Sequence record: OQ921332.1
Length of the DNA: 64,000 nt
Direction: 5' to 3' (one strand)
Source of the DNA: Escherichia phage vB_EcoP_PAS59
The translations under genes were made by a program, and so were the position numbers. Below are positions 1 through 14,608 of the stretch, in pieces (positions within the stretch are counted from its first letter, which is position 1; each line of letters opens with the position of its first letter). Below the pieces are notes generated by a model, which saw only the letters and a list, made by a program, of their open reading frames with translations, searched no databases and was not told where the DNA came from.

Positions 1-120
1 ATGTATATCTAACCAGTGAATACATACCCGTATTTCTCTTACTCATGTTGAGAAGGGATGAAAGGCTAGACTCTGATGTACTGTACAGGCATACTGATAG
101 TGACTATAATAACTGACATA

Positions 121-201
121 ATAACCTATGATAACTAATGATAACCTATGTAAACTATATCAATCCTCACACTACCCCAAGTTTAATAGTGATAACCTAT
201 G
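121..201. repeat. Direct repeat array ATAACCTATG x3 (121, 141, 192) plus variant ATAACTAATG (131)
   Basis: Exact 10-mers read directly in the non-coding left end; no ORF here. Confidence 0.8.
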
Positions 202-398
202 TTAATGTTTCATGAGTGGATTATTGATGTATGTATCATTAGACTGGTATTAGTTTCTTTTATCATTCTTTTAGGTCTGTTTCTTTTTCAGCGTGTCTTT
301 ATTCTTTTTCTTTTAGTTGTTTGAGTAAATTATTTGACTGGTAATTTACTACCGCATGGTCTGACCTGTTACCTGTAACTAACTTACATTATACCCTA

Positions 399-492
399 CC
401 CGTTTCCCCTTCCCCGTTAGGCTTCTTACCCATTGGCTAACCTATGCGGCACGTCTTACCCATCTATCTATCCCGTTGGTCTGCTACCCGTT
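399..492. repeat. Short-motif array: CCCGTT x4 (399, 413, 472, 487) interleaved with CTTACCCAT x2 (425, 455)
   Basis: Exact motifs read directly; non-coding; candidate protein-binding (packaging/replication) sites. Confidence 0.75.
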
Positions 493-608
493 CTGTAAGT
501 GTTATAAAATTGTAAGCTGTATCTCTGAACAAGAAAGTTTAGTAAATTAAATTCTCTTTATATTCAGTGAGTTAGGATTATAAATCTAGATAGTTTGAAA
601 ATAAGTGG

Positions 609-636
609 TTGACATGTTTTTCCTTTAATGTATAGT
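609..636 (+). promoter_or_regulatory. Promoter: TTGACA-16 nt-TATAGT; also contains the 9-mer TAATGTATA (626-634)
   Basis: Consensus -35 at 609-614, -10 at 631-636, about 135 nt upstream of the first gene. Confidence 0.6.
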
Positions 637-770
637 TGCAATCGTAGTTTGAATTATCGTTAATGAAGCAGTGATGTAAAGTAGTTAGCGGTGATAGTGA
701 GCAGTGAAGGTTGATCAGCCTAAGTAACTACACACGACAAACAATCTTTCATTTATCAGGAGTAGTAATA

Positions 771-1271
771 ATGGCTATCAAAGCAATGCAGGCTATCAAT
801 CTAGCGTCCTATGCACTGGTTGCAGCTATCGGTGTTAGTGCTATCGCTACCAATGTTCAGGCTAAAGATGATAAAGTGTTATCCGCTCCTACAGGTCTGC
901 AATCCTTTGTTAGCACGTTTAAGAATGCTCCTGATATGACTTGTCGTGACGTTGGTAGTGATGGTAATGATGCCTTCTGGCGTGTACACTTCAATGAAGT
1001 CACTACCGCTAATGTGCGTGTCACTCTTACCCCATTGGGCGAGAAATCTGGCACTCAGTCAGTCATTAAATTGAAACGTGCTGATAGTGATCATGACATG
1101 GTTACTTATTCTCTATATCAGAAGGTTGAGAAAGAAAAATTACAGTTTGTAACTAATCTCGTTAGTTATGGTGATGTGAGTGAAACCGTACTCGCTACTA
1201 CTGCATATCATGACGGTGTAGCAGTTTATACAACCTTTATTAACTTTGCTAATTGTGATATTGTTCAATGA
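771..1271 (+). CDS. Exported early protein (signal peptide), unknown function
   Basis: Frame of ORF 711..1271; ATG 771 follows AGGAG (758-762); N-terminus MAIKAMQAINLASYALVAAIGVSAIATNVQA/KD looks like a Sec signal with an AxA site. Confidence 0.75.
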   Translation: MAIKAMQAINLASYALVAAIGVSAIATNVQAKDDKVLSAPTGLQSFVSTFKNAPDMTCRDVGSDGNDAFWRVHFNEVTTANVRVTLTPLGEKSGTQSVIKLKRADSDHDMVTYSLYQKVEKEKLQFVTNLVSYGDVSETVLATTAYHDGVAVYTTFINFANCDIVQ

Positions 1272-1364
1272 ATATGGTTTACCCTTTCTTGTTCTTTCTT
1301 GCAATCTTATTGTATGTTCGTAGTTGTATAGCCCTTGTTTCTCAAGCTATTAAGGATTAAACTA

Positions 1365-1613
1365 ATGAATGAGTCATACGCAACCGTAATAAATGCCTAT
1401 ATGTGCATTCAGCATGGTGATTTGGTTATCAGTGGTAAATATGGCCTTGTACTGATTCCTATCCGTGCTTTGGCTTCCTTGTCTTCAGCACATGCACGCA
1501 TGACTATTGCCCGATTGTCCGGCCTTGATCCGATGACCGCTAGCGAGTATCGCGATTTGCTGGTTAAGTCTGGTTTATCGCTGGAAGAACTGTTAACCGT
1601 CGAGGATAATTAA
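1365..1613 (+). CDS. Hypothetical early protein
   Basis: ORF 1335..1613; internal ATG 1365 after TAAGGA. Confidence 0.55.
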   Translation: MNESYATVINAYMCIQHGDLVISGKYGLVLIPIRALASLSSAHARMTIARLSGLDPMTASEYRDLLVKSGLSLEELLTVEDN

Positions 1614-1615
1614 CG

Positions 1616-1888
1616 ATGGAAACTATTGCCATTATTGAAACACATAATTACGGCGTAGGCATTACACTGAATTATGACGCTATGGCTGACGTTGGTAATT
1701 TGTTATTGATCACCCCTAGCGATATGAAAATTATTGCCTTCACTGGTATTATGCTTATTGGTGCGGATTATCTTGAGCTGGCCCAATTCTTTGCCCGTAA
1801 TGGCCTACTATTGGACGTTGACGAGGTGCAAGCCATTTGTGAAACCTTTGATGACTATCTAGATAAGGTTGTAAGTGGTGATTCATAA
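1616..1888 (+). CDS. Hypothetical early protein
   Basis: ORF abuts the previous stop (coupled). Confidence 0.6.
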   Translation: METIAIIETHNYGVGITLNYDAMADVGNLLLITPSDMKIIAFTGIMLIGADYLELAQFFARNGLLLDVDEVQAICETFDDYLDKVVSGDS

Positions 1889-1980
1889 ATACTTCTTGCA
1901 TTGCCTGTTAGTAATTAGTATCATGTTATTTATCTATGACGTGATTTCTTATGTTGTTCGTTCCTTCTAAGGCTTGAATT

Positions 1981-2307
1981 ATGAAAATTAAATTAGCTGT
2001 ATGTGCTGCCTTGTTCGCTGTTTCTTCCGTGTCACATGCTGCCGTATTCAACGAGGCCAGTTTAGATGGTCTGCAATGCACCTATCTAATGGAAAACTAC
2101 GACACTGGCAAGAAGTCCAGCAAGGCAATATTGATTGACCTGAACGACTACGACAGCAAGATAGTTGATAGTAAGTCTGCAATGCTGGTCAATCAGACAA
2201 CAGGCAAGCAAATCACCATTGATCACATGATGCGATCTAGCATGACGTTGTTCGATGAGTCGATGAATGAAATAGCATCAGGTAACGGCACTTGCACCAA
2301 TCCGTAA
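1981..2307 (+). CDS. Exported early protein (signal peptide), unknown function
   Basis: MKIKLAVCAALFAVSSVSHA/AV signal peptide; followed by a terminator. Confidence 0.75.
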   Translation: MKIKLAVCAALFAVSSVSHAAVFNEASLDGLQCTYLMENYDTGKKSSKAILIDLNDYDSKIVDSKSAMLVNQTTGKQITIDHMMRSSMTLFDESMNEIASGNGTCTNP

Positions 2308-2327
2308 CTAATCCGTAAGACTCTCTA

Positions 2328-2352
2328 AGCGCCCTTTTGAGGCGCTTTTTTC
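2328..2352 (+). terminator. Rho-independent terminator
   Basis: GCGCC-CTTTTGA-GGCGC followed by TTTTTTC. Confidence 0.8.
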
Positions 2353-2513
2353 ATTTCTAAGGTGATTGCACATCTTGCCCCTGTTTAGCTCGTTAGGATG
2401 CTTCCTATGTGCCTAGATTTCGATTATAGGGCTTGTTTTCTTCCTCCCTTGATGTTATTCGTGTGTGCGTTCCTTTATGCCTAAAAGAAAGTGAAATTAT
2501 TTTAGAAAAAGAC

Positions 2514-2541
2514 TTGCAACGGTTTTAGGATAGTGTATATT
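2514..2541 (+). promoter_or_regulatory. Promoter P0: TTGCAA-16 nt-TATATT
   Basis: Sigma70-like hexamers; also TAGTGTATA (2531-2539), one mismatch from the TAATGTATA 9-mer. Confidence 0.5.
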
Positions 2542-2581
2542 GAATCTTGTCAGGACGTGATGCAGTAAGTTACCTCCTGAT

Positions 2582-2612
2582 AGGCTAGATTCTTAGCCTT
2601 GCTCTTTAATAA
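2582..2612 (+). promoter_or_regulatory. Hairpin (AGGCTA/TAGCCT) followed by boxA-like TGCTCTTTAATAA (2600-2612)
   Basis: 12/13 match to E. coli rrn boxA TGCTCTTTAACAA; hairpin-then-boxA order as in rrn leaders. Confidence 0.6.
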
Positions 2613-2666
2613 TTCGATTAGTGTATCTTGATAAACTCCCAACCATGCCATAATGAGGATTTATCA

Positions 2667-2867
2667 ATGAACGTGTATACCTTCTCAAGCAAAGACACGC
2701 AAATCACTTGCACTAGCATTAACGTTACTAACATGATTATGAGAATAGTCGGTAGTACATTACAGCAGGCAAAAGAGATGGTAGCCGATGCCGATAAAGG
2801 CAAAGCTATTGCGGTGTTATCGCTGGTAAGTACGGATAAAGATTTAACCTTTAAACGTATGAACTAA
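2667..2867 (+). CDS. Hypothetical early protein (66 aa)
   Basis: ORF 2628..2867; ATG 2667 after GAGGA. Confidence 0.55.
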   Translation: MNVYTFSSKDTQITCTSINVTNMIMRIVGSTLQQAKEMVADADKGKAIAVLSLVSTDKDLTFKRMN

Positions 2868-2929
2868 GGTAAGGTTAGCGGCCTTAACGGTCGCTAGTTT
2901 ATCAAGATGCATTAATCGAAAAATAGTTG

Positions 2930-2957
2930 TTGACACATCGAATCATTATGATAAGAT
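2930..2957 (+). promoter_or_regulatory. Promoter P1: TTGACA-16 nt-TAAGAT with extended -10 TG; A-tract upstream
   Basis: TTGACA 2930-2935; TGaTAAGAT 2949-2957. Confidence 0.7.
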
Positions 2958-2989
2958 GTTCACACGGTCAGCGATGACATAAAACATCC

Positions 2990-3022
2990 GGCACTTAGTG
3001 CCCCGCTCTTTAACAATTTATC
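2990..3022 (+). promoter_or_regulatory. Hairpin GGCAC-TTA-GTGCC followed by boxA CGCTCTTTAACAA (3004-3016)
   Basis: 12/13 match to rrn boxA; GCTCTTTAACAATTTATC (3005-3022) matches the E. coli rrn leader as I remember it. Confidence 0.7.
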
Positions 3023-3089
3023 GTCTTGCCCTTTCGCAAAGATTCACGCGAGATAAGGGAAGAGAATAAAAAGAAGACGATAAAAAGAG

Positions 3090-3117
3090 TTGACAAGGTG
3101 AAACGTTCTGATAGAAT
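3090..3117 (+). promoter_or_regulatory. Promoter P2: TTGACA-16 nt-TAGAAT with extended -10 TG
   Basis: TTGACA 3090-3095; TGaTAGAAT 3109-3117; A-tract upstream. Confidence 0.7.
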
Positions 3118-3140
3118 GTTCACTAAGCAGTAAGAAACAC

Positions 3141-3153
3141 CGCTCTTTAAAAA
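3141..3153 (+). promoter_or_regulatory. boxA variant CGCTCTTTAAAAA
   Basis: About 17 nt downstream of the predicted P2 start; 11/13 match to rrn boxA. Confidence 0.5.
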
Positions 3154-3256
3154 TATGAATCAGAAAGTTAAGCGCAACCGCTTACAATCTTGTTAATCCA
3201 ATGCGTGATTAACTGGTCATTCGAAAGAATAGACGAGAAAAAGATTAAAAAAGTGG

Positions 3257-3285
3257 TTGACACGCTAAACAGGATGATTCATAAT
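3257..3285 (+). promoter_or_regulatory. Promoter P3: TTGACA-17 nt-CATAAT
   Basis: TTGACA 3257-3262; CATAAT 3280-3285; A-rich upstream. Confidence 0.65.
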
Positions 3286-3338
3286 GAGCACTCACTAGAC
3301 AACTAGTGAAACGCGAAACCACGGCGAACGGTGGCGGG

Positions 3339-3379
3339 AGGTGAGAAAGCACCTCGATAGATTTACCGCTCTTTAACAA
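3339..3379 (+). promoter_or_regulatory. Hairpin AGGTG-AGAAAG-CACCT followed by boxA CGCTCTTTAACAA (3367-3379)
   Basis: 18-mer CCGCTCTTTAACAATTTA is identical to the copy at 3003-3020. Confidence 0.7.
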
Positions 3380-3439
3380 TTTAAACTTCTTCCTATATCG
3401 GTTGAACATGGCGAGCAATAATAACCATTGCAAGCTATG

Positions 3440-4185
3440 CCAGATAAAACGATGTAAGGCGCTCTAAAATATCAGAGGAAACCGCTTTATAATCCCTTAC
3501 TGGAAACGACACCACTGATAAATGAAGTTATTGAGTACATGCAAGGCTTAAGCTAATCGCCTACGGTTAAAGGGTAGCGGCGGCGGTGCTAGTAAAGTGC
3601 TACAATAATAGACGTTTATCGGGGTAGTCAAGTCCGACGAATTAACGCTCAATAGCGAGCGGCGGGAGGGGGTTAAAGAGTAGCAAATTGCTATTTAACA
3701 ATAAGGTTTAAGCGTGAGTATTTACTAAGTGAGTGTTTTGATACACATCAATAGCGATGTGAGTACATAAACATGTAGTGTAGTAAATCGTGAGAGAGAT
3801 AATCAAACGCCAAAGTATCAGGCGGTCAATGACTCTTTACCATATGCTTTCCCTTAGTAGGCGATAAGCAGGTTTAGAGAGTTGATATAAAAGGGTATCA
3901 CGAAGCGAAAGCAAAGTAGATAGTAATGCCATCGGCTAGAAATTTAGCTAATTAGAGATGGACGCGCTTGCCTTATTGTGATGATTGATCATCGCTGGCA
4001 AATCGGCTTTGTTTATAGCGATTAGTTGAATCCACCAGATGAAACATCACGGCAAGTTAGGCGGCAAGGTTAACTCCTGATAAGACCGCCTGATTTACCA
4101 CTGGTTACTAATGGTTAGTGATTAGTGTTAAGTCATAGTGACTTGAATAGCCCATAGAGGGCGGCGCATAGTGCGTTTATAATTG
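3440..4185 (+). ncRNA. Long untranslated leader or non-coding RNA (~750 nt) downstream of the promoter/boxA array
   Basis: No ORF of 60 aa or more on the + strand; internal repeats (3565-3610 vs 3671-3706); 11-nt long-range complement 3817-3827 / 4084-4094. Confidence 0.45.
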
Positions 4186-4198
4186 AAAGGTGAATATC

Positions 4199-5101
4199 AT
4201 GGCTAAAGTTTTTAATCTGGTTAACGAATCCGGCTTTAATGCACTGGCAAACAACATTCGTAGCAATAACGCGGCGATCAAACAAGATGTTTCTAACTTC
4301 CTGTTAGGGCATTTGCAGCACTTCCGCACCAACGGTAAGAAACTGGATGTATTGCAGGCGGCGGTTGATTTCTTGTTAACTGAACGTTATCGTGACTTAG
4401 ATGTGATTGCGGTTGCCATCTCTTTCTTAACTCCTATCAAATATAACACTGACGGGGCGAACGGTAAGAAGAAATGGATTAATCTGGAAGGTGAAGCGAA
4501 AGCTAAAGAAGATGCTAAACCGGAACAGGTTAAATCTAAAATGGAACAAAACCGCGCCCGCTGGTCGAATTCCTTTGAACGCTTTGCTAAAGGTGAAGAC
4601 GTGCAGGTTGATAACCCAGCATTCTACAAAGGTTGCAATGACAACGTTCCGGTAGCAAACCAGATCAACCAGAAGGTTAACGAAAACTTTAATCAGGATA
4701 TTTATGCACTGGTTGACCGTCTGGCTGCAATCCGTATTGAAGCGGCATTACTAGCAGATGAACGCAATGGCGCATCTTCTGATAACACTATCGCATTGAG
4801 TGAAGAAGTCGGCAAAGTTAAGAAAACTTTCGATTCACTCCTTAAGAAAGTGACCGCATCAACTGTATCTATCAGCGATGACTACCTGATTAATGCCTCG
4901 ACTAAAGAGCTTGAATCTCTGGACTCATACGCTGATGAAATGGAAAAAGCGATCAACGAAATGACTGAAAAATTGTCTAACCTTCGTGGTCGCATCTCAA
5001 ATGCTTCAACTATCAAAGCGAACGAGAAAGCTGCGCAGGAAGAAGAAGAAGTGTTGCGCAAAGCTGCCGAAATCATGGCAGCACGCCAACAAGCTGCATA
5101 A
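4199..5101 (+). CDS. Early protein (300 aa), C-terminal coiled-coil, unknown function
   Basis: ORF 4190..5101; ATG 4199 after AAAGGTGA; strong terminator follows. Confidence 0.8.
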   Translation: MAKVFNLVNESGFNALANNIRSNNAAIKQDVSNFLLGHLQHFRTNGKKLDVLQAAVDFLLTERYRDLDVIAVAISFLTPIKYNTDGANGKKKWINLEGEAKAKEDAKPEQVKSKMEQNRARWSNSFERFAKGEDVQVDNPAFYKGCNDNVPVANQINQKVNENFNQDIYALVDRLAAIRIEAALLADERNGASSDNTIALSEEVGKVKKTFDSLLKKVTASTVSISDDYLINASTKELESLDSYADEMEKAINEMTEKLSNLRGRISNASTIKANEKAAQEEEEVLRKAAEIMAARQQAA

Positions 5102-5119
5102 CCTATAATAAAACACATG

Positions 5120-5154
5120 AGGCGCTATTCGAAAGGGTAGCGCCTTTTTCTTTT
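5120..5154 (+). terminator. Rho-independent terminator
   Basis: GGCGCTA-N10-TAGCGCC followed by TTTTTCTTTT. Confidence 0.8.
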
Positions 5155-5208
5155 ACTAGTGCATTGATTCAGTGTGCTAATCAAAGAAACTAAAAAGAGA
5201 TAAACACC

Positions 5209-5433
5209 ATGCCAAAACTGAAAACAGAAGTTAAGATGTATCGTAACATTCTCAACAACATGACCTATCGTAAAACCGATAAATACGGAATCGAATGCAA
5301 ATGCATTCTTACTGGCAAGTGGTATCCGTCGCCGATTCAAGAACAAGCATTGATTGAAAACTCTGTTACTTACACTATCACGCAGGAAACTAAGCTAGGC
5401 CGATTCCTTCGTAAGCTGGGGTTACGCAAATGA
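5209..5433 (+). CDS. Hypothetical protein
   Basis: ORF with ATG; overlaps the next start (ATGA coupling). Confidence 0.6.
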   Translation: MPKLKTEVKMYRNILNNMTYRKTDKYGIECKCILTGKWYPSPIQEQALIENSVTYTITQETKLGRFLRKLGLRK

Positions 5434-5651
5434 TCTTAACTCAATCCCATTTGTGCCCTATCTGTAAGAAAGCACGTGCTAACAATAACCATCGCAAGTG
5501 TAGTAGAATCTTACAGCGTCGTCGTAATGATGCCGAGATGGATAAGATTCGAAAGAATCAGTATGAGCACGAAAGAAAACAAGCGGCGATTAGTGCATCT
5601 TCTGTAATGTATCGTCGTGTAAGAGCACTCCAATATAAAGAGGTTGTTTAA
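5430..5651 (+). CDS. Hypothetical basic protein with a CPICK...C motif
   Basis: ORF, coupled to its neighbours. Confidence 0.6.
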   Translation: MILTQSHLCPICKKARANNNHRKCSRILQRRRNDAEMDKIRKNQYEHERKQAAISASSVMYRRVRALQYKEVV

Positions 5652-5861
5652 ATGACTAGTTTAAGCACGTTAGAGAAGAAAGCGACTCGACTGCTAGGAC
5701 GTCGTGTCCGCTACCACTACCTGAATAAAGGTAAGGCATTAACTGGACGTATTACCACGGTATCAAGTCGCTGCGGTAAACTAATCTCCGTAAGTGTTCT
5801 CTTTGATGGCGAACGTGTAGCAATTACACGTAGTTGGAAATCGTTTAGTTTAATTGATTAA
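5652..5861 (+). CDS. Hypothetical protein
   Basis: ORF starts 1 nt after the previous stop. Confidence 0.6.
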   Translation: MTSLSTLEKKATRLLGRRVRYHYLNKGKALTGRITTVSSRCGKLISVSVLFDGERVAITRSWKSFSLID

Positions 5862-5931
5862 GTTATTTGGTTAAGCCTTGCTATGTGGTAAGGCTTGCAC
5901 GATATAATTTATCAGCGAAAGGAATAAAGCA

Positions 5932-6375
5932 ATGGCTAAATCTAAAATCAGCATGAAAGGCGGACGAGTGTTCTCTATGAGTGAGCTGGAAAAAGAAAAG
6001 CCAGCCGCTGTTAGTCATATTAGCAAACGTAGCCTTAAACGAAGAGCTATGAAACAGGCCGCTCAAGCACATAAAGAATCACCTGTACCAAAGGTGCTAG
6101 GTCGTCGTGTTCATCGTGCTGATGCGCTTCTTCTTGCTGATCACAAGCGTTCCTTGTTAACCAACGGGGCAGCAAAAACAGAACAAGAAAAACGTTTAGA
6201 AATCTTTTGTAATGGTCGCACTAAAGGTAAGCAGAAGAATAAAGGTAGCACTAAGCCACCGAAAGCATTTCCTACTACTAGTCAATGTGCACCGGATGTT
6301 TTCTACGCTGACAGTAAACACAAGTGGGGAGTTGAAAAATATATTGACCCAATCAAAACAGCAAGAGTTAAGTAA
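5932..6375 (+). CDS. Hypothetical highly basic protein
   Basis: ORF; GGAATAAAGCA precedes the ATG; Lys/Arg-rich. Confidence 0.6.
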   Translation: MAKSKISMKGGRVFSMSELEKEKPAAVSHISKRSLKRRAMKQAAQAHKESPVPKVLGRRVHRADALLLADHKRSLLTNGAAKTEQEKRLEIFCNGRTKGKQKNKGSTKPPKAFPTTSQCAPDVFYADSKHKWGVEKYIDPIKTARVK

Positions 6376-6405
6376 GCCCCTTCTGTACCAGTGGTCAACT
6401 ACTAT

Positions 6406-6430
6406 GACGCTCTTCTTGAGCGTCTTTTGT
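6406..6430 (+). terminator. Rho-independent terminator T1
   Basis: GACGCTC-TTCTT-GAGCGTC followed by TTTTGT. Confidence 0.75.
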
Positions 6431-6432
6431 CT

Positions 6433-6453
6433 GCCGCCTCTGTGCGGCTTTTT
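6433..6453 (+). terminator. Rho-independent terminator T2
   Basis: GCCGC-CTCTGT-GCGGC followed by TTTTT. Confidence 0.75.
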
Positions 6454-6532
6454 GCGTAGCTAGTGATGCCTAAAGGGAACTCCCTTTGTGAATCATTGGC
6501 ATGGTTCAATCCCTATTGGATGGTCATTTGAC

Positions 6533-6558
6533 CGGGCCTTTAACGAGGCCGCTTTTTT
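6533..6558 (+). terminator. Rho-independent terminator T4 (short stem)
   Basis: GGCC-TTTAACGA-GGCC-GC followed by TTTTTT. Confidence 0.55.
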
Positions 6559-6612
6559 AAGAGTCTTTGCGAGGATTTTTAAATGAGTGAGGTCATGTTC
6601 ACTTTTCAGGTC

Positions 6613-6638
6613 GCCCCGTCTTCGGATGGGGCTTTTTT
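6613..6638 (+). terminator. Rho-independent terminator T5
   Basis: GCCCCGTC-TTCG-GATGGGGC followed by TTTTTT. Confidence 0.85.
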
Positions 6639-6690
6639 ATGCCCGTAAAACAGGGGGTAGTAAGTTCTGATAACGACAGCACAGCTACTT

Positions 6691-7077
6691 TTGACATTGA
6701 CTATTTATTATGAGGCAGGGAATCAGCCAACCGCTTGCAAAGCATTAGTAGCGGATACCGTAATAAACAGAATGTCACAACGAAAACTGACTGCCGAGCA
6801 GGTTATAAATCAACGAAACCAGTTCGAGTGGATACCCGTCCTATTAAAGAAGGAGAAACCTTTTAAGCGTTATGTAAAGCTGATTCGTGATGATAATCCT
6901 CTGACGAAGAAGTCAATCAGAGAGAGCGAGTGGCTTGCAAGGCGTGCACTGAAGAAAGGTTATGTGCCTTTGTACAGCGGTACATACTTTCAGAGTAAGA
7001 GCGAAGGGGTGCCAAAGTGGTATACCAATCCAATGTATTGTGGTGATTTAGTGTTCAATAATAGTGCCCGTGATTGA
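6691..7077 (+). CDS. SleB-like cell-wall hydrolase domain protein
   Basis: TTG start. TIYYEAGNQPTACKALVADTVINRM...QFEW resembles the Hydrolase_2/SleB signature (a.tiy.Ea....g..AVa.Vi.NR....qF). Confidence 0.5.
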   Translation: MTLTIYYEAGNQPTACKALVADTVINRMSQRKLTAEQVINQRNQFEWIPVLLKKEKPFKRYVKLIRDDNPLTKKSIRESEWLARRALKKGYVPLYSGTYFQSKSEGVPKWYTNPMYCGDLVFNNSARD

Positions 7078-7278
7078 TTCATAGGTGCCAAGATTGACAA
7101 ACTAAATTTCCTTATAAATCACACACTTATGATTTTCTCTGCAAAAAGTGGAAGTGATTTGGGACCAGAGGTAATGACTGTATATAGACCTCTGAAAATT
7201 ATTGATAGAAATTAAGTTTAGAAATAATAAATTCTAAATAACATTTCTTATAATATCTTACTTTAAGAGGATAAAGAT

Positions 7279-7584
7279 ATGACTTTAGAGGTTTATAGAT
7301 TCCTTCTCGTACTCACCGTAACGATTTCTGTTCTAGGATTTATTGCGTTAAGTAATAAGTCAGCAAGCTGGAAGCGTCGTTATGAGTTCCTTCTTAAGCA
7401 AGAGGAAGTCTTTAATGCTGATGTTCGTTCCAAACTGCTCAAGATGCAGGAGCAAATTGAAGCACGTAATGATCGTTTGGCTTCTTTGGGTTGGGAGATT
7501 AAACGTATTCAAGATCTCAACAAGCAACTCGCTGAAGAAATTAAACGCCAGAATGAGGAAACAGAGGATGCGCTCAAAGGTTAA
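7279..7584 (+). CDS. Membrane-anchored coiled-coil protein
   Basis: N-terminal TM segment VYRFLLVLTVTISVLGFIAL, then a heptad-like region; AGAGGA RBS. Confidence 0.65.
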   Translation: MTLEVYRFLLVLTVTISVLGFIALSNKSASWKRRYEFLLKQEEVFNADVRSKLLKMQEQIEARNDRLASLGWEIKRIQDLNKQLAEEIKRQNEETEDALKG

Positions 7585-7744
7585 GTTTACCACTGGTAAC
7601 ACTGTTCGCCTTGTTGGCGGTACTCAAACAGGTGTTATTCGTCGGAGAACAACGATTGATGGTGTTCTCTGTTATCTTGTTCAGTGGAATGGTGAGTCTT
7701 CTCCTTCCTTCGAACGTCGTACTGATTTGGTGCTAGTCAAATGA
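7568..7744 (+). CDS. Small protein (58 aa), SH3/KOW-like pattern
   Basis: Internal ATG of ORF 7382..7744, overlapping the end of the previous gene. Confidence 0.45.
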   Translation: MRSKVKFTTGNTVRLVGGTQTGVIRRRTTIDGVLCYLVQWNGESSPSFERRTDLVLVK

Positions 7745-7974
7745 AGATAAACTTCGAAATCATCCCAAAGGTTAAAGAAAAGCAGCTAATCTTCAGTGAT
7801 CTCTCTAACGGGGATATTTTTAAATTTAAGAATGTTGATGCTGATACTTATCTTTGGATGAAAATTGACAAACGGTCTGCCATGAAGTTAAGTGACACTT
7901 CTGACATCACTGATGTATTTATCCATTCTGAAGTCTCTAAGTACAAATACAAAATTATCATTGAGGGTAAGTGA
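7741..7974 (+). CDS. GDxF-family small protein, paralog a
   Basis: LSNGDIFKF motif shared with 6 other ORFs. Confidence 0.65.
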   Translation: MKINFEIIPKVKEKQLIFSDLSNGDIFKFKNVDADTYLWMKIDKRSAMKLSDTSDITDVFIHSEVSKYKYKIIIEGK

Positions 7975-8204
7975 TGAAAATTAATCTCTTCTCTGTAGTT
8001 GTTACTAAAAAGCTCAGTGAGTTACGTCCGGGCGATGTATTCCGTTTACCGACTAACTCTGAAAATGTCTACCTAAAGACAGACACTAGACTTAACGATA
8101 TGCATCGTGTGGTTGGTCTTAGTCAGGGGACACTGTTCCAATTACAGGAAGACCATGAAGTTATCCCTGTACCTGATGTTCAAGTAACTCATATCAATGG
8201 TTAA
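7974..8204 (+). CDS. GDxF-family small protein, paralog b
   Basis: LRPGDVFRL...GLSQGTLFQL...VIPVP; closest to 13948..14199; TGATG overlap. Confidence 0.7.
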   Translation: MKINLFSVVVTKKLSELRPGDVFRLPTNSENVYLKTDTRLNDMHRVVGLSQGTLFQLQEDHEVIPVPDVQVTHING

Positions 8205-10109: not shown

Positions 10110-10185
10110 GCACCCTTAGCTCAATGGACAGAGCAGCGACCTTCTAAGTCGTTGGTTACAGGTTCGAATCCTGTAGGGTGCACCA
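10110..10185 (+). tRNA. tRNA-Arg (anticodon UCU), CCA encoded
   Basis: Acceptor stem GCACCCT/AGGGTGC, anticodon stem GCGAC/GTCGT, loop CTTCTAA, T-arm GGTTCGAATCC, 3' ACCA. Confidence 0.9.
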
Positions 10186-11870: not shown

Positions 11871-11878
11871 GGGTATTT

Positions 11879-12010
11879 ATGACTAAAGAATTTTTAGAGT
11901 GGTTTGGAAATACCTTCAAAGAATATCTATTCTCTCCAGAAGACTTTGAAGAGCTGAAAACCTACACTTGGTTGGCTTGGAGAGATAGCCGACGAAAAAT
12001 GAATAAGTAA
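11879..12010 (+). CDS. Small protein (43 aa) with ELKTY.W.AWRDSRRK motif, paralog 2
   Basis: My translation: MTKEFLEWFGNTFKEYLFSPEDFEELKTYTWLAWRDSRRKMNK. Confidence 0.55.
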   Translation: MTKEFLEWFGNTFKEYLFSPEDFEELKTYTWLAWRDSRRKMNK

Positions 12011-12305
12011 TATCGTGAAGGACTCTTACGAGAGTCCTTTGAGATAGGACTTCAGATCTTCTATCAAACTAACTTTCACGTAACTAGCCCATAAGGGCGT
12101 TACCCTTCAATAACCCAGCCCACTAAGGGGGCGGGAGTTTAGTGCTGGAAAAGCATAACGCTTATCCTACAAAGGCAACCGATTGTTAGATCTTACATGC
12201 AATATTAATTAATAGGATATGGGAGGATTCGTCCCCTCCCCCTATTTATGAAAGCATTCTCCCGAGAGTTCTCTCATAAATTGGTCCATAACTAAAGGTG
12301 GTAAA

Positions 12306-14199: not shown

Positions 14200-14335
14200 C
14201 ATCTATAGCCCTCGTGAGTATCAGAGGGCTATGTGAGCTATTCTGGCTCAACTAACCTAATCTTAATTTAATCTTACCCGTATGGGGCCGATGCTAGGGA
14301 GAGGAACAATCCTCAAACATCCGTCGGATAGAATA
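14197..14335 (+). ncRNA. Conserved structured non-coding element, copy B
   Basis: Aligns with 8205-8335; hairpins at 14205-14232, 14234-14250, 14277-14286 and 14301-14314. Confidence 0.5.
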
Positions 14336-14395
14336 TTTTAAGAGCAGGTTATCCACAGATATTGGGTGATATCTATTTAATTGGCCTTAAAGCTT

Positions 14396-14420
14396 GGCTC
14401 TCTTAGGAGAGTCCTTTTTT
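14396..14420 (+). terminator. Rho-independent terminator
   Basis: GGCTCTC-TTAG-GAGAGTCC followed by TTTTTT. Confidence 0.7.
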
Positions 14421-14440
14421 AAGTTCAAAGAAGAGGTTGT

Positions 14441-14608
14441 ATGGATAATAAGTTGAAAGCTAAATTCTTATTGGCAGCAATCTTTATTTGCTTAGCCACT
14501 GTAGGGTTTGTCAGGATGTACTCTTTTGCATCTTGTGAATTAAGCAAGAATGATAGAGGGTCTTACAACTGGCTAACCAATCAATGTGACAAACAGGAGA
14601 AGTTATGA
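14441..14608 (+). CDS. Small membrane or exported protein (55 aa)
   Basis: My translation: MDNKLKAKFLLAAIFICLATVGFVRMYSFASCELSKNDRGSYNWLTNQCDKQEKL; ATGA overlap with the next gene. Confidence 0.45.
   Translation: MDNKLKAKFLLAAIFICLATVGFVRMYSFASCELSKNDRGSYNWLTNQCDKQEKL

Follow-up and report, generated by a model that had tools for sequence, protein, structure and literature searches.

A conserved, structured non-coding RNA of about 830 nt behind a promoter and boxA array in phiEco32-like coliphages

We analysed a 64,000-nucleotide (nt) stretch of Escherichia phage vB_EcoP_PAS59, a Kuravirus (phiEco32-like) coliphage (record OQ921332.1; hereafter the window, numbered from its first letter), with emphasis on the long gene-free gap upstream of the gp124 homolog. 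We hold it to be nearly certain that this region encodes a structured non-coding RNA on the + strand, which extends over about 830 nt from a boxA site to the Shine-Dalgarno sequence of the gp124 homolog and comprises three domains. A preliminary description of the window had proposed a structured + strand non-coding RNA below strong tandem promoters, and this proposal was upheld by the covariation, the excess of G-U pairs and the lack of a coding signal reported below.

The structure was determined with RNAalifold on an alignment of 23 Kuravirus sequences (A1) covering positions 3290-4201. The consensus contained 40 helices with 239 pairs, and standard pairs were present in 99.0% of the sequence-by-pair cells. 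Compensatory changes on both sides were detected in 82 of the 239 pairs in comparison to 8-12 in slid controls, in which each 3' partner was shifted by 1-3 columns, and none of the 500 column shuffles reached the observed pairing values. The covariation signal was not circular, because the minimum-free-energy fold of the window sequence alone, obtained without comparative input, still gave 78 compensatory pairs (9-12 in the controls), with 88.9% of the cells paired versus 32-44% in the controls. The G-U and U-G combinations made up 10.5% of the paired cells in the 23 sequences, in contrast to 0.4% for A-C and C-A. This difference indicates that the + strand is under selection in single-stranded form and, given the upstream promoters, therefore as RNA. 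Invariant columns were as frequent among the unpaired positions (56%) as among the paired ones (53%), which points to tertiary contacts or bound partners and not to the fold as an end in itself. In composition, the RNA is rich in G (24.5%) and poor in C (17.5%). Conservation and covariation among related genomes had been named beforehand as a check on the proposed RNA; apart from the compensatory pairs, the region was kept in 97 of the 97 phage records matched by BLAST of positions 2880-4300.

The gap region is not protein-coding. Positions 3434-4189 were the longest stretch of the window without an open reading frame (ORF) of at least 60 amino acids (aa), both strands considered, and the + strand contained no ORF of at least 50 aa over positions 2868-4189, so that the ORF-free tract of ~750 nt noted initially was an understatement. 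The coding potential was evaluated on the gap aligned from 23 distinct phages, whose identity to the window was 72-98% throughout. The variable sites lacked three-base periodicity, insertions and deletions (indels) were frequent and mostly 1 or 2 nt long, and a search for a conserved small ORF across the aligned phages found none common to all of them. The only ORFs in the gap were tiny (20-54 codons, with TTG or GTG starts), and although two of them recurred in many relatives, the notion that the gap hides small proteins has a negligible probability in our view, given that these recurrent ORFs have TTG or GTG starts and are missing from some phages, including the window, while the substitutions do not follow codon positions and indels of 1-2 nt are frequent. 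The counterpart of the gap in phiEco32 is the ~1.9 kb between genes 125 and 124. In the deposited annotations the gap is mostly empty, and in some records it is filled with short 'hypothetical proteins' (30-50 aa) in both orientations. For instance, the vB_EcoP-101114UKE3 locus (L011) carries ten such annotations on both strands at positions 230-1900, across the promoters and the structured RNA; judging from the covariation and the indel pattern, these small-gene calls are spurious.

The matched phage records were nearly all Escherichia and Shigella phages of the subfamily Gordonclarkvirinae (Kuravirus, Suseptimavirus and Nieuwekanaalvirus), i.e., phiEco32-like podoviruses with elongated heads, and the record nearest to positions 2880-4300 was phage NC-B (97.7%). 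Among the public phage records, the RNA and gp124 co-occurred in the same 97 genomes. More distant loci were found by protein search with gp124, the homologs being located on assembled contigs of 22-100 kb, and seven of these loci were taken. Their gp124 proteins were 45-69% identical, and a homologous RNA was found directly upstream in all seven (nhmmer E values of 1e-11 to 1e-111). Each distant relative carried 2-3 consensus boxA sites, the last of them 870-936 nt before the ATG versus 831 nt in the window. The Kuravirus structure was projected on a plain MAFFT alignment (A2) that combined 16 Kuravirus sequences with the seven distant ones. In this alignment, 89.0% of the cells paired versus 37-45% in slid controls, and compensatory changes were present in 155 of the 239 pairs versus 71-85. 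Several helices (e.g., 4099-4127, 4001-4023 and 3527-3538 with 3597-3609) were wholly kept, with 1-6 compensatory changes per sequence; in all seven distant relatives, helix 4001-4023 retained 6-7 of its 7 pairs and helix 4099-4127 retained 10-12 of its 12.

Outside this group the RNA was not detected. BLASTN of positions 2900-4200 against 5,426 E. coli genomes (chromosomes and plasmids) and a conserved-loop scan of bacterial and archaeal genomes gave zero matches, and a metagenome scan returned close relatives only (75-81% identical). The IMG/VR scan with the invariant hairpin identified known Kuravirus contigs and two further hits, which were rejected as chance matches, as they came from an unrelated AT-rich phage, where a coding region ends. 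The early region of the related Salmonella phage 7-11 lacked both boxA and an RNA homolog, and no paralog of the RNA was found elsewhere in the 64-kb window.

The sequence upstream of gp124 in the distant relatives was also unusually poor in genes. The gp124 homolog was preceded there by ~3 kb without a called gene and with very few ORFs of at least 40 aa (gene-free spans L042:1272-4000, L044:983-4000, L046:563-4000, L048:955-4000 and L049:935-4000), and L048 had no + strand ORF of at least 40 aa in the 2.1 kb checked. The last ~0.95 kb corresponded to the RNA homolog; the other ~2 kb contains promoter/boxA modules and perhaps more structured RNA.

The coordinates of the locus are collected in Table 1. 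The second 5' hairpin ends 12 nt before boxA-3, which gives the order typical of rrn operons, boxB and then boxA. The closing helix of Domain I retained 11 of its 11 pairs in three distant relatives in alignment A2, and 4-8 of the 11 in the other four. The latter include d041, in which the strands CUUCUUC/GGGAGGGG are replaced by UAUCUGAC/GUUAGAUA, still complementary when compared by eye. The 3' half of the near-invariant hairpin between Domains I and II contains a boxA-like sequence, GCUAUUUAACAAU, which is off consensus at position 4. Within the 3' domain, the hairpin 4058-4092 encloses a small inner helix in its 21-nt loop. A natural replacement was observed in phage LAMP (L015), where, at window positions ~3797-3850, the hairpin 3808-3824 and the 5' strand of the arm 3825-3848 are swapped for unrelated AT-rich sequence, with added inserts of 21 and 11 nt; this sub-domain is therefore dispensable or replaceable.

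Table 1. Features of the promoter, boxA, RNA and gp124 locus in the window. Promoters and transcription starts are predictions from sequence.
Feature	Position	Strand	Remarks
P0, predicted weak sigma70-like promoter for small gene 2667-2867	2514-2541	+	9/12 consensus matches
Hairpin, then boxA-0 (GCTCTTTAATA)	2582-2599; 2601-2611	+	
P1, predicted promoter	2930-2957	+	TTGACA-16-TAAGAT, extended -10 TG, A-rich upstream tract
boxB-like hairpin, then boxA-1 with flank	2990-3002; 3005-3022	+	
P2, predicted promoter	3090-3117	+	TTGACA-16-TAGAAT with TG; conserved in relatives
boxA-2 (GCTCTTTAAAA)	3142-3152	+	
P3, predicted promoter, last before the RNA	3257-3285	+	A-tract, TTGACA-17-CATAAT; probable start near 3292
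Two 5' hairpins	3319-3334, 3338-3355	+	consensus fold
Second 5' hairpin	3338-3355	+	purine-rich loop AGAAAG; compensatory changes in 3/6 pairs
boxA-3 (GCTCTTTAACA)	3368-3378	+	same in all relatives; abuts 5' strand of Domain I closing helix
Domain I	3380-3677	+	closing helix 3380-3392 with 3665-3677; consensus fold
Domain I contents	hairpin 3407-3439, arm 3440-3503, long arm 3508-3629, hairpin 3647-3660	+	
Near-invariant hairpin GAGUAGC-AAA-UUGCUAUU	3678-3696	+	alignment and covariation fold
Domain II	3698-3979	+	closing helix 3698-3716 with 3963-3979; consensus fold
Domain II helices	3719-3725/3916-3922, hairpin 3734-3773, 3788-3793/3898-3903	+	
Domain II hairpins and arms	hairpin 3808-3824, arm 3825-3886, GAAA-tetraloop hairpin 3905-3912, arm 3929-3961	+	
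3' domain, eight hairpins in a row	3980-4177	+	consensus fold
3' domain hairpins 1-4	3980-3993, 4001-4023, 4038-4048, 4058-4092	+	
3' domain hairpins 5-8	4099-4127, 4129-4145, 4150-4162, 4163-4177	+	
Shine-Dalgarno AAGGTG and ATG of gp124 homolog	4186-4191; ATG 4199-4201	+	
gp124 homolog, 300 aa	4199-5101	+	always the gene directly downstream of the RNA
Strong intrinsic terminator closing the promoter-RNA-gp124 unit	5119-5146	+	12-pair stem, then T run

The repeated motifs on which the preliminary description had built were all present in the window (GGCGGGAGG at 3333 and 3661, ATCAGGCGGTC at 3817 with its complement at 4084, a 16-mer at 2569 and 4069, and GGTTAAAG[G/A]GTAGC at 3565 and 3671), but the structural roles assigned to them did not hold among the relatives. 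A 260-nt domain had been envisaged as closed by the 3817 and 4084 arms; the 11-nt complement is lost in relatives (the arms read AGACGG and CCGCCC in SU7), and each arm belongs to its own local covarying hairpin (3808-3824 and 4058-4092). The two ~40-nt units regarded as related structural modules share ~10 of 14 nt in most relatives and occupy non-equivalent contexts: the first lies inside the terminal arm of Domain I, and the second straddles the invariant hairpin and the 3' strand of the helix that closes this domain. The duplication of GGCGGGAGG proved to be local, as the 3333 copy is confined to the lineage of the window and most relatives read TTGCATAGTG there. Similarly, the 2569 copy of the 16-mer was exact in only two of the 39 loci (SU7 and UKE3). 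The CUCCU at 4074-4078, previously taken for an anti-Shine-Dalgarno sequence, forms the 3' strand of the 3-bp inner helix, which reads GGC/GCC or AAC/GUU in distant relatives; it is therefore not a conserved anti-Shine-Dalgarno.

Both GGUUAAAGRG motifs (3565-3574 and 3671-3681) are complementary to boxA (GCUCUUUAAC, 3368-3377). A single-sequence fold paired boxA with GGUUAAAGAG (3368-3377 with 3672-3681). This candidate was rejected, since it places a C:A mismatch in 15 of the 23 sequences and the competing hairpin fits 22 of the 23. Judging from these sequences, the pairing is probably not conserved among relatives, and it could mask boxA in the lineage of the window.

Promoters were called by a sigma70 consensus scan of the first 8 kb, and all the best matches, P1-P3 among them, were on the + strand. 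P1 is a partial duplicate of P2. P3 was essentially identical in 23 of the 23 Kuravirus sequences, including the A-rich upstream tract, with an identical -10 hexamer and a -35 hexamer of TTGACA/G. The gamma-proteobacterial boxA consensus, GYTCTTTAANA (PMC5725501), had four exact matches in the 64 kb, all on the + strand at the positions given in Table 1, in comparison to 0.58 expected. Each of them lies ~50-85 nt past the -10 hexamer of a sigma70 consensus promoter with a predicted start site. The boxA-1 site with its flank, GCTCTTTAACAATTTATC, matched the E. coli rrnB leader without a mismatch over 18 nt. A hairpin precedes three of the four boxA sites, whereas P2 has no clear hairpin; the order of hairpin and then boxA is that of rrn operons, the reverse of lambda. 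Every Kuravirus locus carried at least three boxA copies, arranged in the same way, with a range of 3-6 per phage. The likeness to an rRNA operon that had been suggested for this region is thus reinforced by the four exact consensus matches behind promoters. The hairpin 2582-2599 has the upstream 16-mer copy (2569-2584) just on its 5' side, and this hairpin/boxA-0 module matched exactly only in the SU7 and UKE3 loci. In seven Kuraviruses (ECBP2, KBNP1711, TH34, 1-6af, SGF2, MN05 and 4E8; L003, L005, L009, L014, L016, L022 and L023), a GC-rich insert of ~150 nt (..CGCGGGAAAGGTGGCACATAGTGCAGCG..GGGCTTAGGCGCCCC..) was observed between P2 and boxA-2, aligned to window positions ~3125-3135; it may be an additional small structured module.

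The resemblance to the E. coli rRNA operon leader extends to strong promoters arranged in tandem with A-rich tracts upstream of them, an exact consensus boxA preceded by a hairpin, a boxA adjoining the 5' strand of a long-range helix, and a long, untranslated, highly structured product. In contrast to that leader, the phage RNA resembles neither rRNA nor the remainder of the leader in sequence, follows several promoter-boxA modules in series and precedes a protein gene, in a virulent phage; nor does the phage locus have a boxC-like element. boxA antitermination counteracts Rho on rRNA and, in Salmonella, on clustered regularly interspaced short palindromic repeat (CRISPR) arrays (PMC5725501, PMC7665894), and it is thought to help long-range rRNA folding (PMC10250234).

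Taken as a whole, the locus would produce a Nus-antiterminated early RNA that folds co-transcriptionally and acts as a protein-binding scaffold, an explanation that we place just on the probable side. Host RNA polymerase would transcribe positions 3293-4198 from the three strong tandem early promoters P1-P3, as the long untranslated 5' part of the transcript bearing the gp124 homolog. NusB and NusE (S10), together with NusA, NusG and SuhB, would convert the polymerase to the Rho-resistant form used on rRNA operons, and such boxA protection would be needed because ~0.9 kb of untranslated, unprotected RNA would invite Rho termination. The boxA matches make the use of Nus factors at the array likely. 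The boxA-tethered complex could then hold the 5' strand of the Domain I helix until its partner emerges 285 nt later. Such chaperoned folding is suggested by the last boxA abutting this strand, and applies to Domain I the same idea of boxA-tethered strand holding that has been proposed for the 16S leader-trailer helix. The RNA, possibly released from the mRNA by processing, would be functional in its own right, most likely as a scaffold or decoy for a host or phage protein early in the takeover; a function in trans is conceivable, although we consider it to fall somewhat short of probable.

Several observations weigh against the composite explanation. A boxC-like, GU-rich element was not seen after the four boxA sites when these were compared by eye with rrnB UGUGUGGG. 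The fairly confident AlphaFold model of gp124 (predicted local distance difference test score of 81) matched only its own family in the PDB and viral structure set and gave no hint of RNA binding; searches of gp124 against Pfam gave zero matches, and against PHROGs only 'unknown function'. The most distant group of relatives (d041, d042, d048 and d049) was uncertainly aligned in several helices. Moreover, the RNA adjoins gp124 in every relative, the distant ones included, with no intervening terminator, which suits a purely cis-acting leader equally well.

Such a leader, affecting the translation efficiency, timing or mRNA stability of the gp124 message, e.g., as a ribosome-loading platform or as a sensor of a host factor, is the main rival, possible but in our estimate unlikely. 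It is favoured by this constant adjacency: the RNA and gp124 were never found apart, no terminator separates them in the window or in any relative, which also makes the 'stand-alone' RNA of the preliminary description doubtful, and the last hairpin lies 8-20 nt from the ribosome-binding site in every relative. However, about 830 nt in three domains far exceeds the needs of known bacterial translational operators, and the site itself appears to be accessible. In local partition-function folds of 12 sequences, the ribosome-binding site was in every case more open than the leader on average, and local occlusion was rejected as a candidate. The only pairing predicted over the site (3361-3371 with 4185-4195) was rejected as well, as its columns are invariant in the Kuraviruses and so provide no covariation, its complementarity is only ~1.5 standard deviations above shuffles, and it is absent in the distant relatives. 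Simple occlusion by a conserved alternative structure found no evidence in the Kuraviruses or the distant relatives, which weakens the earlier suggestion that the RNA regulates translation of the gene at 4199; a ligand- or protein-driven switch at this site is possible. The independent recombination of RNA and gp124 alleles also speaks against a purely cis-acting role. The gp124 of the window is 99% identical to that of SU7 (L001), and the RNA is 77% like that of SU7 and 98% like that of NC-B (L008), while EK010 (L010) resembles SU7 in Domains I and II and the window from ~3995 on. From this mosaic pattern it follows that recombination exchanges alleles of the RNA, and even its domains, independently of gp124.

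A Nus-factor sponge appears improbable. Here, the boxA array on an abundant, stable RNA would drain NusB, S10 and SuhB from the rRNA operons of the host and thereby halt ribosome synthesis, the fold serving solely to stabilise the RNA. The 3-6 consensus boxA copies per phage, each behind its own strong promoter, and the near-invariant boxA-like GCUAUUUAACAAU inside the RNA would suit this role. Against it, the P3 transcript bears just one consensus boxA, and the internal copy deviates at position 4, one of the two positions mutated together in a boxA mutant deficient in SuhB association (PMC5725501). A stabilising role would require neither conserved loops and junctions nor a fixed three-domain plan.

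The put elements of phage HK022 are ~70 nt long, consist of two hairpins and act in cis on the polymerase without protein factors. By analogy, the fold might bind the polymerase and cause read-through of terminators in the early-to-middle block, for which ~46 kb of genes in the same direction downstream, several terminators after the unit and the absence of a terminal stop signal from the early genes, as described by the authors of SU10 (PMC4281155), could be cited. We consider this quite remote, as the ~830-nt RNA differs greatly from put in size and architecture and the boxA sites already provide a route to antitermination. A DNA-level element, or an origin primer similar to ColE1 RNA II whose persistent hybrid would prime phage replication, is formally alike in being long, structured, untranslated and behind strong promoters, but is very improbable, since conserved AT-rich unwinding elements, DnaA boxes and a GC-skew feature are absent from the locus, the abundant G-U pairs reflect selection on the single + strand, and covariation is seen over the full 830 nt.

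The RNA did not match any described family in the sources searched. The Rfam 15 collection (4227 models, including group I/II introns, 6S, tmRNA, RNase P, GOLLD, ROOL, riboswitches and self-cleaving ribozymes) gave zero hits at E <=1 in positions 1-8000; at E <=10 on positions 2500-4250, it gave only chance hits of 12-17 bits, far under the family thresholds. The RNA and the boxA array were not described in the literature found on phiEco32, Kuravirus and Gordonclarkvirinae, a search that did not include the primary phiEco32 papers (Savalia 2008, Pavlova 2012), which may describe the early promoters or the gap.

Among known systems other than the rRNA leader, boxA-protected CRISPR arrays and other Nus targets (PMC7665894, PMC5725501) share the consensus boxA near the 5' end of a long, Rho-exposed, untranslated transcript; the phage RNA differs in being a single complex fold, not a repeat array, and its protection is presumptive. 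The lambda nut/N system likewise combines a phage boxA with host Nus factors on early transcripts, as may happen here. In nut, however, boxA precedes boxB, an order that was not found at this locus, where the hairpin is located 5' of a full rrn-type boxA. The phage is, moreover, virulent and unrelated to the lambdoid phages, and no N-like protein turned up, although none was searched for. The large RNAs GOLLD, ROOL, OLE and HEARO are comparable in their size (0.6-0.9 kb), multi-domain fold, conserved junctions and phage association. Unlike them, the present RNA matches no Rfam family, is physically fused to a downstream gene with boxA ahead of it, and was found in E. coli/Shigella phages and uncultured relatives. 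In the T7 early region, promoters A1-A3 are followed by an untranslated leader with an RNase III site and then by gene 0.3. That arrangement is similar in its three strong tandem host-type promoters, untranslated leader and first abundant early protein, but the T7 leader, a few hundred nt long with one processing hairpin, is not an 830-nt covarying three-domain fold and lacks a boxA array.

More speculatively, and in our opinion rather unlikely, the RNA could represent a new class of large viral 'pseudo-ribosomal' early RNA, in which the host rRNA machine (boxA, Nus factors and SuhB) is borrowed to make and fold a 0.9-kb RNA. This RNA would then combine with ribosomal or RNA-binding proteins of the host, or with gp124, which is conserved alongside it, to form a particle that redirects host expression or blocks a defence in the first minutes of infection. 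To our knowledge, very few bacterial or phage RNAs of more than 500 nt with a conserved complex fold exist, and each has opened a line of work. The present one is found in a well-studied, genetically tractable family of E. coli phages (phiEco32, SU10 and BASEL Bas86-94), in whose genome annotations 1-3 kb is either empty or occupied by spurious small genes. Its position behind the strongest early promoters would make its abundance, processing, partners and knock-out phenotype directly measurable. If the proposed mechanism is true, rrn-type boxA antitermination, known for rRNA, suhB and CRISPR arrays, would extend to the early programme of a virulent phage, and the locus would be a compact natural substrate for testing the boxA-tethered chaperoning of long-range RNA helices.

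Some further features of the window were observed. The next-largest stretches without an ORF of at least 60 aa on either strand, after the leader and the first 710 nt, were located at 11871-12241 (371 nt) and 14200-14604 (405 nt). The GC skew was positive in nearly all 2-kb bins up to ~46 kb and negative past that point, which fits a long + strand gene block downstream of the boxA promoters followed by an oppositely oriented block. Downstream of the early genes, the + strand contains four terminator-like hairpins (6406, 6433, 6535 and 6613) in ~230 nt (6406-6632), an unusually dense stop region for an antiterminated polymerase to cross. One tRNA-Arg (TCT) is located at 10110-10185. The 108-aa ORF at 1981-2307 has a signal-peptide-like start (MKIKLAVCAALFAVSSVSHA), yet it falls in a PHROG labelled 'terminase', and several phage records give its homologs the same name; this label is almost certainly a propagated misannotation.

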